From an uncultured Eubacteriales bacterium (lineage in GTDB: Bacteria; Bacillota; Clostridia; Christensenellales; CAG-138), in contig OW818651.1 in assembly GCA_942492885.1 (NCBI GenBank), positions 2,479,513 through 2,543,512 on the forward strand: a stretch of 64,000 bases of DNA. Direction: 5' to 3'. The notes under the pieces were generated by a model, which had not been told where the DNA came from, ran no database searches, and saw only the letters and a list, made by a program, of their open reading frames with translations. Shown piece by piece: positions 11,572-14,811 of this stretch. Position 1 is the stretch's first letter, and each line of letters starts with the position of its first letter. The translations under genes and the position numbers were made by a program.

Positions 11572-11662
11572 CCCACGCAAATGGCACAACCCGCGAAAGC
11601 GGGCGTCGCAAAGCTATAGGGCCTACCGGCATTCACTTGCCCACGGCAGCCAGTTTCCGAAT
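11572..11662 (+). ncRNA. c-di-GMP-I (GEMM) riboswitch aptamer
   Basis: CACGCAAAUGGCACAA-CCCGC-GAAA-GCGGG-CGUCGCAAAGCUAUAGGGCCUA...ACGGCAGCCAGUUUCCGA. P2 has a GNRA loop, the GCAAAG junction is present, and the G20/A47/C92 equivalents fall at 11583/11610/11657. Confidence 0.88.
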
Positions 11663-11722
11663 GAAGAACTCACGTTTCACACGATCAGCCGGGAACGGTT
11701 TGGTTGTGTTTCAAAAAAACGG

Positions 11723-11767
11723 TGGCGGTTCAGATTCATTGGGAATTTGAGCCGTTGTTCTTTTTTT
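11723..11767 (+). terminator. Putative riboswitch expression-platform terminator
   Basis: GU-rich stem tggcggttca/tgagccgttg followed by T7, between the aptamer and the peptidase gene. Confidence 0.45.
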
Positions 11768-11837
11768 GAACGGCTATCGAAAAAATTCTATCGTTTTATG
11801 GTGTTGACTACTTTTGATCGATTGAGGAGAGACAAAC

Positions 11838-12464
11838 ATGCAGGCTTTGCTGCCGGTGATCTACGGCGCTGCACTGGGCGCCATTCTGGCAGTCCCCGCG
11901 CGGCTCCTCTACGGGTTCTTACTCAAACAGCGCGGCATCGCCGGGCAGATGGAGCGCAAGCACTTCTGGATGTTGCTTGCAGGTATGGCGCTCATCGGCG
12001 GAGTGATCGGCTGGCGGGCGGGGGTTACCTTCCGCGGGCTATACCTCATGCTGCTGCTGCTGGTCGCGGGGCTGGCGTTTTTGATCGATGCGAAGCACCG
12101 CATCATCCCAAACGAGCTTGTGCTCGCAATTCTGGTTCTAGCCGCGGTGTTCGGGCTGACCGGGGTGATACGATTCCAGATTTGGAATTCCCTGCTAGGG
12201 CTCGCCGTATGCTTCGTCATTTTCTTTCTTCCGGGCCTGTTTGGAAAGCAGGTAGGCGCGGGGGATGTCAAGCTGGCAGCCGCGATGGGGTTTGCGCTTG
12301 GGCTAAAGGGCAGTCTGTACGCGATTGCGTGCATGGGCGCTCTGGTGCTGCTCTATGTTTTTCTAAACTGGCGCATACCGTTTGCGCAGCGGCTCAAGAC
12401 GATGATCCCGATGGGGCCGTTTCTGGCGCTTGCGCTGGTCGCAATGTCGATCATATTGGTCTAG
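11838..12464 (+). CDS. Type IV prepilin peptidase (A24 family, TadV/CpaA-like)
   Basis: Polytopic membrane protein with IDAKHRIIPN and GAGDVKL aspartate motifs; upstream of flp genes. Confidence 0.88.
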   Translation: MQALLPVIYGAALGAILAVPARLLYGFLLKQRGIAGQMERKHFWMLLAGMALIGGVIGWRAGVTFRGLYLMLLLLVAGLAFLIDAKHRIIPNELVLAILVLAAVFGLTGVIRFQIWNSLLGLAVCFVIFFLPGLFGKQVGAGDVKLAAAMGFALGLKGSLYAIACMGALVLLYVFLNWRIPFAQRLKTMIPMGPFLALALVAMSIILV

Positions 12465-12692
12465 GAGCAAAACTGGGACCAAATAGCGCGGAAATACCAG
12501 CGACTCAAAAAGTCGACGCTCGTTGCGGAACAGGGAACAATTTTACGGTGCGATCAAAATGAACCTACTCTTGATCGTCGCCGTGCATATTTCGCTGCTT
12601 GGCACCGTTGTTGGAACGATCTTGTTACAAGATTCGGGATAACGCGTGGCAACAGGCCTGCGGAAAATTTCGTGGAAAGGAGGATTACTTGA

Positions 12693-12845
12693 ATGAAAAA
12701 GTTTTTCATGAATGAAGAGGGCCAGGGTATGGTCGAATACGGCCTGATCATCGCGCTCGTCGCGGTTGTCGTCATTGGTGCCATTGCGGCGCTGGGCGGT
12801 GGCGTTGGCAACACCTTTAACTCGATCGTCGGTAATCTGGATTAA
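12693..12845 (+). CDS. flp: Flp/Fap type IVb pilin 1 (50 aa; absent from ORF track)
   Basis: Hand translation MKKFFMNEEGQG-MVEYGLIIALVAVVVIGAIAALGGGVGNTFNSIVGNLD; G|xxEY Flp motif; SD AAAGGAGG. Confidence 0.93.
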   Translation: MKKFFMNEEGQGMVEYGLIIALVAVVVIGAIAALGGGVGNTFNSIVGNLD

Positions 12846-12885
12846 TTAAACCATAGGAAAACTCAAGGGAAGAGGAAGCAGGACG

Positions 12886-13038
12886 ATGGATCGTTTCGTT
12901 TTGAATGAAGAGGGTCAGGGCATGGTTGAATACGCACTGATCATTCTGCTTGTTGCGCTTGTCGTGATCGGCGGACTAACGCTGATGGGCACAAACGTTG
13001 CTGCGTTTTTCAACGATTTTAGCAATAATTTCTTGTGA
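12886..13038 (+). CDS. flp: Flp/Fap type IVb pilin 2 (50 aa; absent from ORF track)
   Basis: Hand translation MDRFVLNEEGQG-MVEYALIILLVALVVIGGLTLMGTNVAAFFNDFSNNFL. Confidence 0.92.
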   Translation: MDRFVLNEEGQGMVEYALIILLVALVVIGGLTLMGTNVAAFFNDFSNNFL

Positions 13039-13173
13039 GAAAACGAAGCAGGTGCGTACCGGAACACGGCGATGCTATCGAGCGCTTTGAATAGGCGAAT
13101 ACGCCTTACCCCTAACACAATTCGTTCGAAACGATTTGCGTTACATTCGTTTTGTGTGTACTTCCCTGGGTGG

Positions 13174-13415
13174 GAGGATTCCAAAAACTGACCTTGTTCG
13201 AGCTGCCGCATCGGCTGACTGCTCGTCTAGCCGGCGCGAACAGATCAGAGCCAGGATTTCCGGAATGAGAGCGACCGTTGGTAACATGGCCGTTCTCATT
13301 CCGGCACTCAGCATTTAACCGGAATCCTCAGTATCTCTGGCGCTGCGACAACAGAATTGCGCTTGCCGCGCGAGAGATGCTGATGATGAGATGCCTGATC
13401 CTGTAGGCAGGAGGG
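13174..13415 (+). ncRNA. Candidate structured RNA / cis-regulatory element of unknown class
   Basis: Several long helices found by eye (13174-82/13321-29; 13188-200/13237-48; 13260-70/13294-304; 13331-48/13363-80). No credible ORF. Confidence 0.45.
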
Positions 13416-13422
13416 AGAAACC

Positions 13423-13854
13423 ATGGAGCAATCGATTGTTGGAAAACCATCTAAGAAGATACGTCGGGAGAACGGTCAGGCGGCCGTAGAGCTGGCTCTT
13501 GTGCTTCCGCTCTTATTATTGTTGATCTTCGGTATGCTGGAGATGGGCTGGCTCGCCTCCACACGGCAGGTGATGGATACCATGACGCGCGAGGCAACCC
13601 GCGCGGGAACAGTAGCCGCGACCACCACCGCCGCAACGACCGCCGTCAATGCCGCCGTCACGAAGATCAAACCGGCTTATTTGACAAATACGGTTACGGT
13701 CACCGTCACGTTCTCCACGCCTTCCAACTTTAAGGCCGGAGACATCACGGTCACCACGGCCTACGATCTGCCGACCTTGACACCGATTACCGCATTTCTC
13801 GCCCCCGGGGGCAGCTTTCACATCGTATCGACGAGTACGATGAAGGTTGGCTAG
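13423..13854 (+). CDS. tadE: TadE-like pseudopilin
   Basis: RENGQAAVELALVLPLLLLLIFGMLE class III signal and TREATRAG motif. Confidence 0.88.
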   Translation: MEQSIVGKPSKKIRRENGQAAVELALVLPLLLLLIFGMLEMGWLASTRQVMDTMTREATRAGTVAATTTAATTAVNAAVTKIKPAYLTNTVTVTVTFSTPSNFKAGDITVTTAYDLPTLTPITAFLAPGGSFHIVSTSTMKVG

Positions 13855-14034
13855 CGGGGAATCCCATTATCGCCACCAGAGACGTTGCAGGCTGGCCAGC
13901 CGAAAAACCGATCGGATTACGGCGGTGCAGGCCGGACACGAAATATTGGAATGCCGGAAAGAGATCGGATCGTTTGCACTTTGCAAGCCAAAGTCGGCGG
14001 ACATCCGTTCAACTGATCCGGCAGGAGGGCTCTC

Positions 14035-14811
14035 ATGAAAAAAATTGTCTTGTTCGCCCTGATCGCCGCGCTTTGCGCGGGCGCGTTGCTCTATTTTTAT
14101 CTGGGCAATCTCGAAGCGCAAAAAGAGGTGAAGGTGGAGTACGACAACGTGGTTGTTGCCTTGACCAACATCCCCGCTTATACGCCGATCACGGCTGACA
14201 TGGTCACATTCAAGCAGGTGCCGCTGGGATATGCGCATCCGCTTGCCGCGCACACGCTCGAAGAAGTCGTAAACTACGTGACCGAGAGCGACATCATCGA
14301 GGGCGAGCAGCTATTGCCCGCCAAGCTCAAGCAATATGGTGAGGCCGACAGCGGACTATCGTATGTCGTGCCGGAAGGCTTGCGCGCGGTGACCGTCGGG
14401 GTCGATGAAGTCACCGGCGTCGCTGGATTTTTGCAGCGCGGGGATTATGTAGACGTCATCTCCTACACCACCACGACCTATCTGCCTGCCGAGGCACCAG
14501 TTGTCCCGGAAGGCGAAGAACCCACGGCAGCCCAGCTGCCGCAAACGCTGAGCACCACGCTGGTTGCCGCGCAGAATGTACGCGTGGCAGCGGTCGGCAT
14601 GTCTCTCTCGGGCAACGCGACGACGGCGGAAGGCGAGCCGGTCACCGGATACGGCAGCGTGACGCTGCTATTGACGCCGGAGGACACCATGCGTGTGGTG
14701 CAGGGTGCAAGAAGTGGCGCGATCATCCTGATTCTGCGTGCGACGGGCGACCATACGCCTAACACGGAAGAACCGGTCATCAACGATATGCTATTGGTCC
14801 AGGCACAGTAA
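14035..14811 (+). CDS. cpaB: Flp pilus assembly protein CpaB/RcpC (SAF domain)
   Basis: VVVALTNIPAYTPIT (SAF), GLRAVTVGVDEVTGVAGFLQRGDYVDVI, SVTLLLTPED. Confidence 0.92.
   Translation: MKKIVLFALIAALCAGALLYFYLGNLEAQKEVKVEYDNVVVALTNIPAYTPITADMVTFKQVPLGYAHPLAAHTLEEVVNYVTESDIIEGEQLLPAKLKQYGEADSGLSYVVPEGLRAVTVGVDEVTGVAGFLQRGDYVDVISYTTTTYLPAEAPVVPEGEEPTAAQLPQTLSTTLVAAQNVRVAAVGMSLSGNATTAEGEPVTGYGSVTLLLTPEDTMRVVQGARSGAIILILRATGDHTPNTEEPVINDMLLVQAQ

Follow-up and report, generated by a model that had tools for sequence, protein, structure and literature searches.

A conserved structured RNA domain in the flp-tadE spacer of a riboswitch-led Tad pilus operon

Introduction

In the saePQRS operon of Staphylococcus aureus, intergenic cleavage by RNase Y is directed by a double-stranded element of 24 base pairs (bp) just downstream, and this processing shifts the expression ratio within the operon (PMC5449607). 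For the pil genes of Clostridium perfringens, RNase Y processing is likewise proposed to stabilise the mRNA of the major pilin pilA2 (discussed in PMC6958937). Here we describe an element that recalls both systems, found in a stretch of 64,000 nucleotides (nt), called the window throughout, from an uncultured Eubacteriales bacterium (assembly GCA_942492885.1, contig OW818651.1, positions 2,479,513 to 2,543,512 of the forward strand). It takes up the 384-nt spacer (13039..13422, + strand) between two flp pilin genes and tadE, and its core consists of two hairpins, H1 (13260..13304) and H2 (13324..13387), joined by an unpaired linker (13305..13323). As judged from sequence, this spacer is a cis-acting structured RNA domain inside what reads as a single long mRNA for the Tad pilus with a cyclic di-GMP (c-di-GMP)-I riboswitch at its start. 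By analogy with the systems just named, we tentatively propose that it may act as an intercistronic processing and differential-stability module, a reading that we favour over the others considered below but put forward as possible rather than probable.

The RNase Y model for the pilD-pilB2-pilC2-pilA2 genes of C. perfringens (PMC6958937) deals with the same demand, far more major pilin than machinery from a single unit, and meets it through RNA near the pilin gene. The likeness to the sae site is one of layout, since both sites are intergenic in a co-transcribed operon and both consist of a single-stranded stretch followed by a long double-stranded element (PMC5449607), which measures 24 bp in sae and 20-25 bp in H2; the proposed outcome, an expression ratio shifted by unequal fragment stability, is also alike. 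The two nevertheless differ in that the upstream fragment is degraded in sae, whereas here the upstream pilin fragment would be protected by H1, and cleavage at the present site is only proposed. Moreover, the two elements have no sequence similarity, and the sae element is not reported to be conserved in sequence across families, whereas H1 and H2 are.

Control of the ratio of pilin to machinery at the RNA level is also known from another pilus operon, papBA of Escherichia coli, and Kram et al. (2008, cited in PMC3767616) reportedly described a 'termination cascade' in the tad locus of Aggregatibacter. These three systems use ordinary terminators, promoters or a cleavage site and are not known to have a conserved multi-hairpin domain of ~250-380 nt, and their gene order and organisms differ from those of this locus. 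Conserved structured RNAs do occur inside other long operons. EAR of the Bacillales, which belongs to an operon for a cell-surface structure and is said (Irnov and Winkler, 2010) to lie between epsB and epsC in Bacillus eps operons, and the put RNAs of phage HK022, which form two sequence-conserved hairpins, resemble the present element in this respect, and the pair of hairpins is put-like. In contrast, EAR has a pseudoknotted fold, the present element has no Rfam match and an H2 that is replaceable in some clades, and antitermination would be suggested here by analogy only. Riboswitches, including the operon's own c-di-GMP-I riboswitch, are likewise cis-acting structured mRNA elements, in this case in a c-di-GMP-controlled pilus operon, and possible occlusion of a Shine-Dalgarno (SD) sequence is a further likeness. 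Unlike them, the spacer element is conserved in its stems rather than its junctions, has separable modules, lacks a platform terminator, does not lie in a 5′ untranslated region (UTR) and belongs to no Rfam family.

A conserved RNA fold in the flp-tadE spacer

An earlier reading of this DNA from its letters (the original prediction) had placed an unrecognised multi-helix RNA of about 240 nt between the pilin genes and tadE. That such an RNA is genuine, and belongs to the + strand, is borne out by its fold, its homologues and its covariation, which agree. Positions 13174-13415, a stretch of 242 nt, fold as RNA at -107.6 kcal/mol compared with -79.8 +/- 4.7 kcal/mol for 200 dinucleotide shuffles (z -5.98, with 0/200 as good), which is well beyond chance, and the whole 384-nt spacer gives a z of -5.14. 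The minus strand of the shorter stretch folds less well (-98.9 kcal/mol, z -4.30), the + strand being better by 8.7 kcal/mol. The extent first proposed was too small, as conservation takes in essentially the whole spacer of ~380 nt, which nhmmer aligns at the DNA level in many loci and which is ~350-395 nt long in most homologous loci.

Homologous loci, designated below by L and a number, were gathered with TadE homologues (45 genome and 47 metagenome loci) and by exact-protein look-up (a further 11); the genome records are metagenome-assembled genomes (MAGs) labelled Christensenellaceae, Christensenella, Clostridiales, Eubacteriales or Bacillota. About 45 Christensenellaceae-like loci, from genomes and metagenomes, have the spacer element ahead of tadE.

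Covariation in the homologous flp-tadE spacers supports both core hairpins. Across 33 distinct homologues, 96.1% of the H1 and H2 cells are paired and 15/37 pairs show compensatory double changes; no column shuffle out of 500 reaches any of the observed measures, and sliding the partner by 1-3 columns drops the pairing to 31-48%. H1, the most widespread module, is a hairpin of 16 pairs, CCGGAAUGAGAGCGACC...GGCCGUUCUCAUUCCGG, whose loop varies and whose mismatch, A.C or A.G, is conserved; 97.5% of its cells are paired and its mean dG is -27.7 kcal/mol. H2 is an extended hairpin in which AUCCUCAGUAUCUCUGGCGCUGCG pairs with a 3′ arm ending ...GCGCGAGAGAUGCUGAUGAU, with conserved bulges. It is 20-25 bp long in 33/33 homologues (mean 22.8 bp), with 95% of cells paired, compensatory changes in 11/21 pairs and a mean dG of -32.8 kcal/mol. 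The variation at single pairs can be seen in H1 column 20/44 (GU 16, GC 10, AU 6) and H2 column 147/183 (GC 20, AU 6, UA 3), and in the divergent locus L008 the lower H1 stem is rewritten with compensating changes. Bases in the paired columns are 85% identical between loci, compared with 46% in the unpaired loops and linker. G.U pairs outnumber A.C oppositions in the two stems by 67 to 19, which, together with the better folding of the + strand, indicates that the + strand is the folded one.

Long inverted repeats of this kind are palindromic in DNA too, for which reason the minus strand also scores with the covariance models, and they could mark a DNA palindrome such as a protein-binding site, a mobile repeat or a miniature inverted-repeat transposable element (MITE). 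We find such an origin, or one as a small protein gene, barely credible. The compensatory changes run through G.U intermediates, which speaks against a DNA element, as does its copy number: each locus yields a single full-length + strand match to the core covariance model, R1, invariably placed immediately ahead of tadE, and the 64-kb window, in which a blastn search with the spacer returned only chance matches of 11-15 nt, yields only one. Within the window and the loci searched, the element is thus not a repeat or MITE, and it had no match in mobile-element collections: blastn against the PLSDB plasmids and INPHARED phages gave none, and pattern scans for H1 and H2 in the IMG/VR viral contigs gave 0. 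As for a protein, stop codons occur in all frames in most homologues and the length differences of loops and linker are not multiples of 3; the small open reading frames (ORFs) in the spacer were set aside as genes, no frame being conserved across homologues.

A possible role in processing and differential stability

Our proposal of a processing and stability module can be set out as follows. An endoribonuclease would cut in or beside the linker; it could resemble RNase Y, or it could be RNase III with the 20-25 bp of H2 as its substrate. H1 would then stand at the 3′ end of the fragment with the prepilin-peptidase and flp genes, where it would block 3′-exonucleases and give a longer-lived pilin mRNA, while H2 would head the tadE...tadC fragment and shield it against 5′-exonuclease, the two hairpins thereby uncoupling the lifetimes of the fragments after cleavage. 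Weak local or long-range pairings to the SD would hold tadE translation low. A single promoter and a single c-di-GMP signal would then yield pilin in large amounts and machinery in small ones, and it is plausible from its position that the spacer element sets the stoichiometry of pilin to machinery.

What we count in favour of this proposal is the position inside the operon, the covariation, the + strand fold, the stability of H1 and H2, the A+U content of the linker and a drop in SD accessibility described below. The linker, a candidate endonuclease cleavage zone of 17-74 nt in homologues, has a mean A+U of 55% compared with 47% for the whole spacer (GC 0.534). H2 and the linker together present the double-stranded element of about two helical turns directly after an unpaired region that marks the sae RNase Y site (PMC5449607), and the spacer lies between same-strand genes of one transcription unit, as an intercistronic site of the RNase Y type should. 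The length of H2 is also that of an RNase III substrate. Furthermore, in a clade that has H1 only, with TadE proteins as close as 76-78% to that of the window, an unrelated long hairpin occupies the place of H2, which fits a role of these hairpins as structural end-caps.

Several observations weigh against the proposal. The stems are conserved beyond what a generic stability hairpin needs: at 85% they are more alike than the tadE gene, whose nucleotide identity is 67% (81% at codon position 2 and 47% at position 3), a pattern that speaks for recognition of the sequence itself by a protein or a second RNA. AUUYCGGCAC, the 3′ arm of H1, is retained even in loci whose 5′ arm has lost its complementarity to the lower part of the 3′ arm. 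In addition, the loci L015 and L023 have the same riboswitch, but their flp genes abut tadE without the spacer element; riboswitch-led Tad operons that lack the element therefore exist, which makes it an accessory of one Tad operon lineage. Because a processing model does not require the sequence conservation observed, we keep open two other kinds of explanation, a switch based on specific binding and antitermination.

It is thus conceivable, although we consider it unlikely, that a dedicated factor, be it a protein, RNA polymerase itself or another RNA, recognises the sequence of H1 and H2 and docks there, and that the two hairpins so represent a new class of intra-operon regulatory RNA. If true, they would form a second checkpoint after the c-di-GMP riboswitch, or an element of the processive-antitermination type, and it would depend on them whether a cell with pilin goes on to assemble the Tad machine as well.

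Alternative pairings and the tadE ribosome-binding region

The helices named in the original prediction are all present in the window, and five of them were also recovered independently by a repeat finder. GAGGATTCC (13174-82) and GGAATCCTC (13321-29) are complementary at 9/9 positions; the arms 13255-76 and 13288-309 enclose the perfect stem CCGGAATGAGA/TCTCATTCCGG; the repeat finder also gave the arms of the long hairpin (13324-46 and 13365-87) and of the interrupted arm (13195-203 and 13234-42); and ATTCCGG at 13298-304 complements CCGGAAT at both 13260 and 13319. The switch-like alternatives drawn from these helices fared less well, as they are lineage-specific or not above controls and hence not conserved. 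Only 65% of cells in the 9-bp closing helix pair across homologues, no better than in shuffled or slid controls. The duplex reaches -16.7 kcal/mol in the window and in three close relatives, whereas its energy is at the level of chance in most of the remaining homologues, among them some that keep the right-hand sequence without its left partner. The 3′ strand of this helix, AUCCUC (13324-29), is also the base of H2, where it pairs with GAUGAU (13382-87); every clade retains this pairing, and compensatory changes accompany it, for instance U-A to C-G in L101. Both partners proposed for ATTCCGG do exist in the window, but the copy at 13319 is found only in a window-like subclade.

The ribosome-binding site (RBS) region of tadE (13392..13417, + strand), as seen in local folds and predicted SD accessibility, contains two mutually exclusive small hairpins around the SD, GGAGGGAG (13410-17). 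TCCTG (13399-403) pairs with CAGGA (13408-12) as predicted earlier, and this UCCUG/CAGGA hairpin overlaps and covers the SD; however, its effect is weak, and in the window an alternative hairpin that leaves the SD free, UGCCUG/UAGGCA, competes with it. The mean probability that the SD is unpaired is 0.51, compared with 0.58 when the upstream sequence is shuffled, and it is lower in 25/39 loci; predicted accessibility falls from 0.48 in the local context to 0.29 in the full spacer. A CU-rich tract ~100 nt 5′ of H1, either GCAUCCUCUUU or the 5′ strand of a small hairpin, Ps (see below), is among the top two predicted SD partners in 14/32 homologues. This tract is possibly a long-range anti-SD for tadE, and we treat it as only a lead, since it rests on thermodynamic prediction without a proper control.

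We also observed that the tract reads GCAUCCUCUUUYCC, ~100-110 nt 5′ of H1, in L001, L018, L042, L047, L081, L002, L046 and L005. It resembles the 3′ end of 16S rRNA, and its equivalent in the window is the 5′ strand of Ps at 13162-13166.

These pairings bear on the idea of a regulated switch, in which the spacer would serve tadE and the assembly genes as a leader that responds to a protein or a ligand. Binding to the stems of H1 and H2, or to the 5′ domain, would then shift competing pairings and thereby open or close the tadE RBS, or affect transcription. The competitors would be the UUCC/GGAA words, AUCCUC with GAGGAU or GAUGAU, and the anti-SD tracts with the SD. We regard this idea as doubtful. 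The extreme conservation of stem sequence would suit it, suggesting either specific recognition or several overlapping pairing constraints, and mutually exclusive pairings do occur, namely the closing helix (P1) and the extension of H2, the two hairpins at the SD (Hx and Hy), and GAUGAU as opposed to AUCAUC beside the SD in L078, L096 and L101. The CU-rich SD partner and the lower SD accessibility in the full-length context point the same way. Against it, conservation is concentrated in the stems and not in the loops and junctions, which vary, whereas known riboswitch aptamers show the reverse; the 85% identity of paired columns and 46% of unpaired ones, with loops and linker that vary in sequence and length, do not describe an aptamer of the riboswitch class. 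H1 and H2 occur independently of each other and tolerate a linker of 17-74 nt, which indicates that there is no compact joint fold. As regards an expression platform, neither hairpin is followed by a terminator, SD occlusion is weak and variable, and the long-range anti-SD is predicted in some homologues only. Finally, the specific alternative pairings have the limits given above, and the operon encodes no RNA-binding regulator.

One further candidate in this region was rejected. The word CUGAUGA at 13380-86 suggests the core of a hammerhead or a K-turn/box C-D motif and produces a chance Rfam match to SNORD57 (20.7 bits), but its C and U are not conserved and tandem G.A pairs are absent.

The 5′ domain of the spacer

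The part of the spacer upstream of H1 holds further helices. Its first helix, AAUUCGUU-CGA-AACGAUUU (13119..13137, + strand), was read by eye from alignments and appears as a small helix in the RNAalifold consensus; it is the weakest-supported helix of the spacer, and in homologues its place is filled by other sequences, such as CAGUUCAU...AUGAACUG. The small hairpin Ps, UUCCC-UGGGU-GGGAG (13162..13176, + strand), has 88% of cells paired and compensatory changes in 2/5 pairs, and its 5′ strand is anti-SD-like and its 3′ strand SD-like. It is followed by a conserved unpaired tract, GAUUCCAAAAACUGAC (13177..13192, + strand), which is near-invariant as AAAACUGAC in 17 aligned sequences, and then by arm A (13193..13254, + strand), a long three-tier rod hairpin that holds the interrupted arm and inner hairpin of the original prediction. 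Arm A is supported by per-sequence folds and covariation; its sequence varies and its shape is conserved, with 17/17 homologues each folding the segment as a single rod hairpin.

A model of this domain, R2, took its structure from the window sequence alone and its seed from four near-identical sequences. In the other 13 members of the clade, Ps and arm A under R2 have 89% of cells paired and compensatory changes in 18/28 pairs, figures to be read with the caution that an alignment fitted with R2 leans to R2's own structure. The covariation score of the 5′ domain is 0.40, compared with 0.20 in shuffles, and none of 500 shuffles reaches it. Two alternative helices suggested by RNAalifold, UCC.AAA.CUG with CAG..UUU..GGA and CUUGUUC with GGAAUGA, both of which compete with H1, were discarded as uninformative because both rest on invariant sequence.

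The 5′ domain takes at least three forms among homologues. Mosaic spacers were also observed: L054 (960-1228), L052 (2220-2488) and L100 join a window-like half comprising H1, linker, H2 and SD (window 13160-13425) to the 5′ domain of another clade (GCAUCCUCUAUCCCGAACGGAAG...), which suggests recombination within the spacer. Separately, clade C spacers carry in their 5′ third the sequence GGAGGUCAAAUGACGG, which consists of an SD followed by AUG (L018 3604-3700, L042 3613-3710, L047 2109-2200, L002 3626-3720). The frame that it opens runs for 6 to ~57 codons, and a hairpin AUGACG-GUG-CGUCAU is also present; this start may be left over from the beginning of an flp gene, or it may belong to a leader peptide.

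Distribution and relation to known RNA families

The few matches of R1 away from the flp-tadE spacer in the loci searched were weak (13-18 bits, E 0.01-0.3). Three of them lie ~900-960 nt past the tadE start (L056 1436-1542, L052 3444-3550, L005 1818-1924), and these are probably chance matches in conserved coding sequence. Five MAGs contributed a pair of Tad loci. In L010/L020, L012/L021 and L011/L022, one locus has H1 in a spacer of ~220 nt and the other a short spacer without H1, whereas L017/L034 and L016/L038 have no H1. The presence of one locus with and one without H1 in the same genome indicates that the element is specific to one Tad paralogue.

A stable, conserved and structured RNA directly 3′ of pilin genes could also be a separate small RNA, transcribed from its own promoter or derived from the 3′ UTR and acting in trans, with its location in the Tad operon incidental; the 3′ side of highly expressed genes is a common source of 3′-UTR small RNAs. 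We think this decidedly improbable, as no promoter-like site and no 3′-end terminator accompany the element, it runs without a gap into the tadE RBS, and it is confined to the flp-tadE spacer across ~100 loci and the 64-kb window.

A scan of the window against Rfam 15 at gathering thresholds gave only the c-di-GMP-I riboswitch, so that the element matches no family, in keeping with the original prediction, which had not recognised it; at E<=10 over 12400-14200 there were only chance-level matches to eukaryotic snoRNAs and miRNAs, of 15-21 bits. A literature search on RNA motifs in flp-tadE spacers or Christensenellaceae Tad operons found no described motif. Structured mRNA elements that act in cis inside operons are already known as a kind, and the present element belongs among them; as an RNA family, it appears to be undescribed.

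The same scans touch on the suggestion, made by analogy to EAR and put, that H1 and H2 could be a processive antitermination RNA that modifies RNA polymerase after the pilin genes and permits read-through of the more than 7 kb of assembly genes. The element would resemble such RNAs in lying inside a long surface-structure operon after its first few genes, in its sequence-specific conservation and in its two conserved hairpins. We nevertheless judge the suggestion quite unlikely: at E<=10 there is no match to Rfam EAR (epsC), nor one beyond chance level to any other family, H2 is replaced by unrelated hairpins in some clades, no downstream terminator that antitermination would have to overcome came to light, none having been sought, and the suggestion is one of pure analogy.

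Operon context

At the head of the operon lies the aptamer of the c-di-GMP-I riboswitch (11573..11661, + strand; Rfam RF01051, 67.6 bits against a gathering score of 35). It is followed by a terminator-like 17-pair hairpin (11721..11769, + strand), found both by the terminator scan and from the sequence, which is likely to be the riboswitch expression platform; with its CTTTTTTT tail, at 11760, it illustrates the form that a canonical terminator takes in this organism. The first gene encodes a prepilin peptidase of the CpaA/TadV type (11838..12464, + strand; an ORF with a match to Pfam Peptidase_A24, E 8.6e-15). The two flp pilin genes (12693..12845 and 12886..13038, + strand) are ORFs of 50 amino acids with the Flp motif G-MVEY-LI, and their homologues in L093 are assigned to PF04964 Flp_Fap.

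Downstream of the spacer, tadE (13423..13854, + strand, with its ATG at 13423) encodes a minor-pilin-like protein, identified by Pfam TadE and by homologues, and is the first gene of the assembly block tadE-cpaB/rcpC-tadZ/cpaE-cpaF/tadA-tadB-tadC-DUF192, all on the + strand. The Pfam matches in this block are TadE, RcpC/SAF, AAA_31/ParA, T2SSE, T2SSF (twice) and DUF192. A scan of the spacer for promoter-like and terminator-like sites found none, and in an operon led by a riboswitch the spacer RNA is therefore most simply an internal part of the riboswitch-controlled polycistronic mRNA.

H1 could instead be a leaky intrinsic terminator or attenuator that stops most transcripts after the pilin genes, in the manner reported for the Aggregatibacter cascade. 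It is strong and lies directly 3′ of these genes, and the 12 nt that follow it contain a mean of 4.6 U, with more U in H1-only loci, such as CACUUUUUCUAUUUUUUU in L047. We consider this improbable, in part because a conserved CAC stands between the H1 stem and the first U, the tail in the window being CACUCAGCAUUUAA; a canonical terminator has its U-tract within 0-2 nt of the stem, and H1 with CAC-UCAGCAUUUAA was rejected as one. The scan finds no terminator in the spacer, unlike the CTTTTTTT tail of the riboswitch platform. Furthermore, the stem and loop of H1 are far longer than usual, and a terminator would leave H2, which is followed in the window by GAGAUGCC, and the 5′ domain unexplained.

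Significance

Tad/Flp pili drive adhesion and biofilm formation, and to our knowledge very little is known about the regulation of Tad pili in Gram-positive anaerobes such as the Christensenellaceae. A c-di-GMP-I riboswitch was also found upstream in 16/18 related Tad loci tested, and the recurrence of the same riboswitch ahead of these operons suggests that Tad pilus expression in this group is c-di-GMP-controlled at the RNA level, as it appears to be from these sequences. The locus described here has a two-tier RNA layout, in which the riboswitch turns the operon on and a structured RNA stands at the boundary between the genes for abundant subunits and those for the low-copy machinery. Whether it serves processing or specific binding, the spacer element is delimited well enough to be a candidate family for Rfam. 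Binding of a specific factor by its conserved stems would make it a new class of regulatory RNA; if it is the processing and stability module that we tentatively propose, it would offer a clean model of how one transcript can give unequal protein doses in Clostridia.

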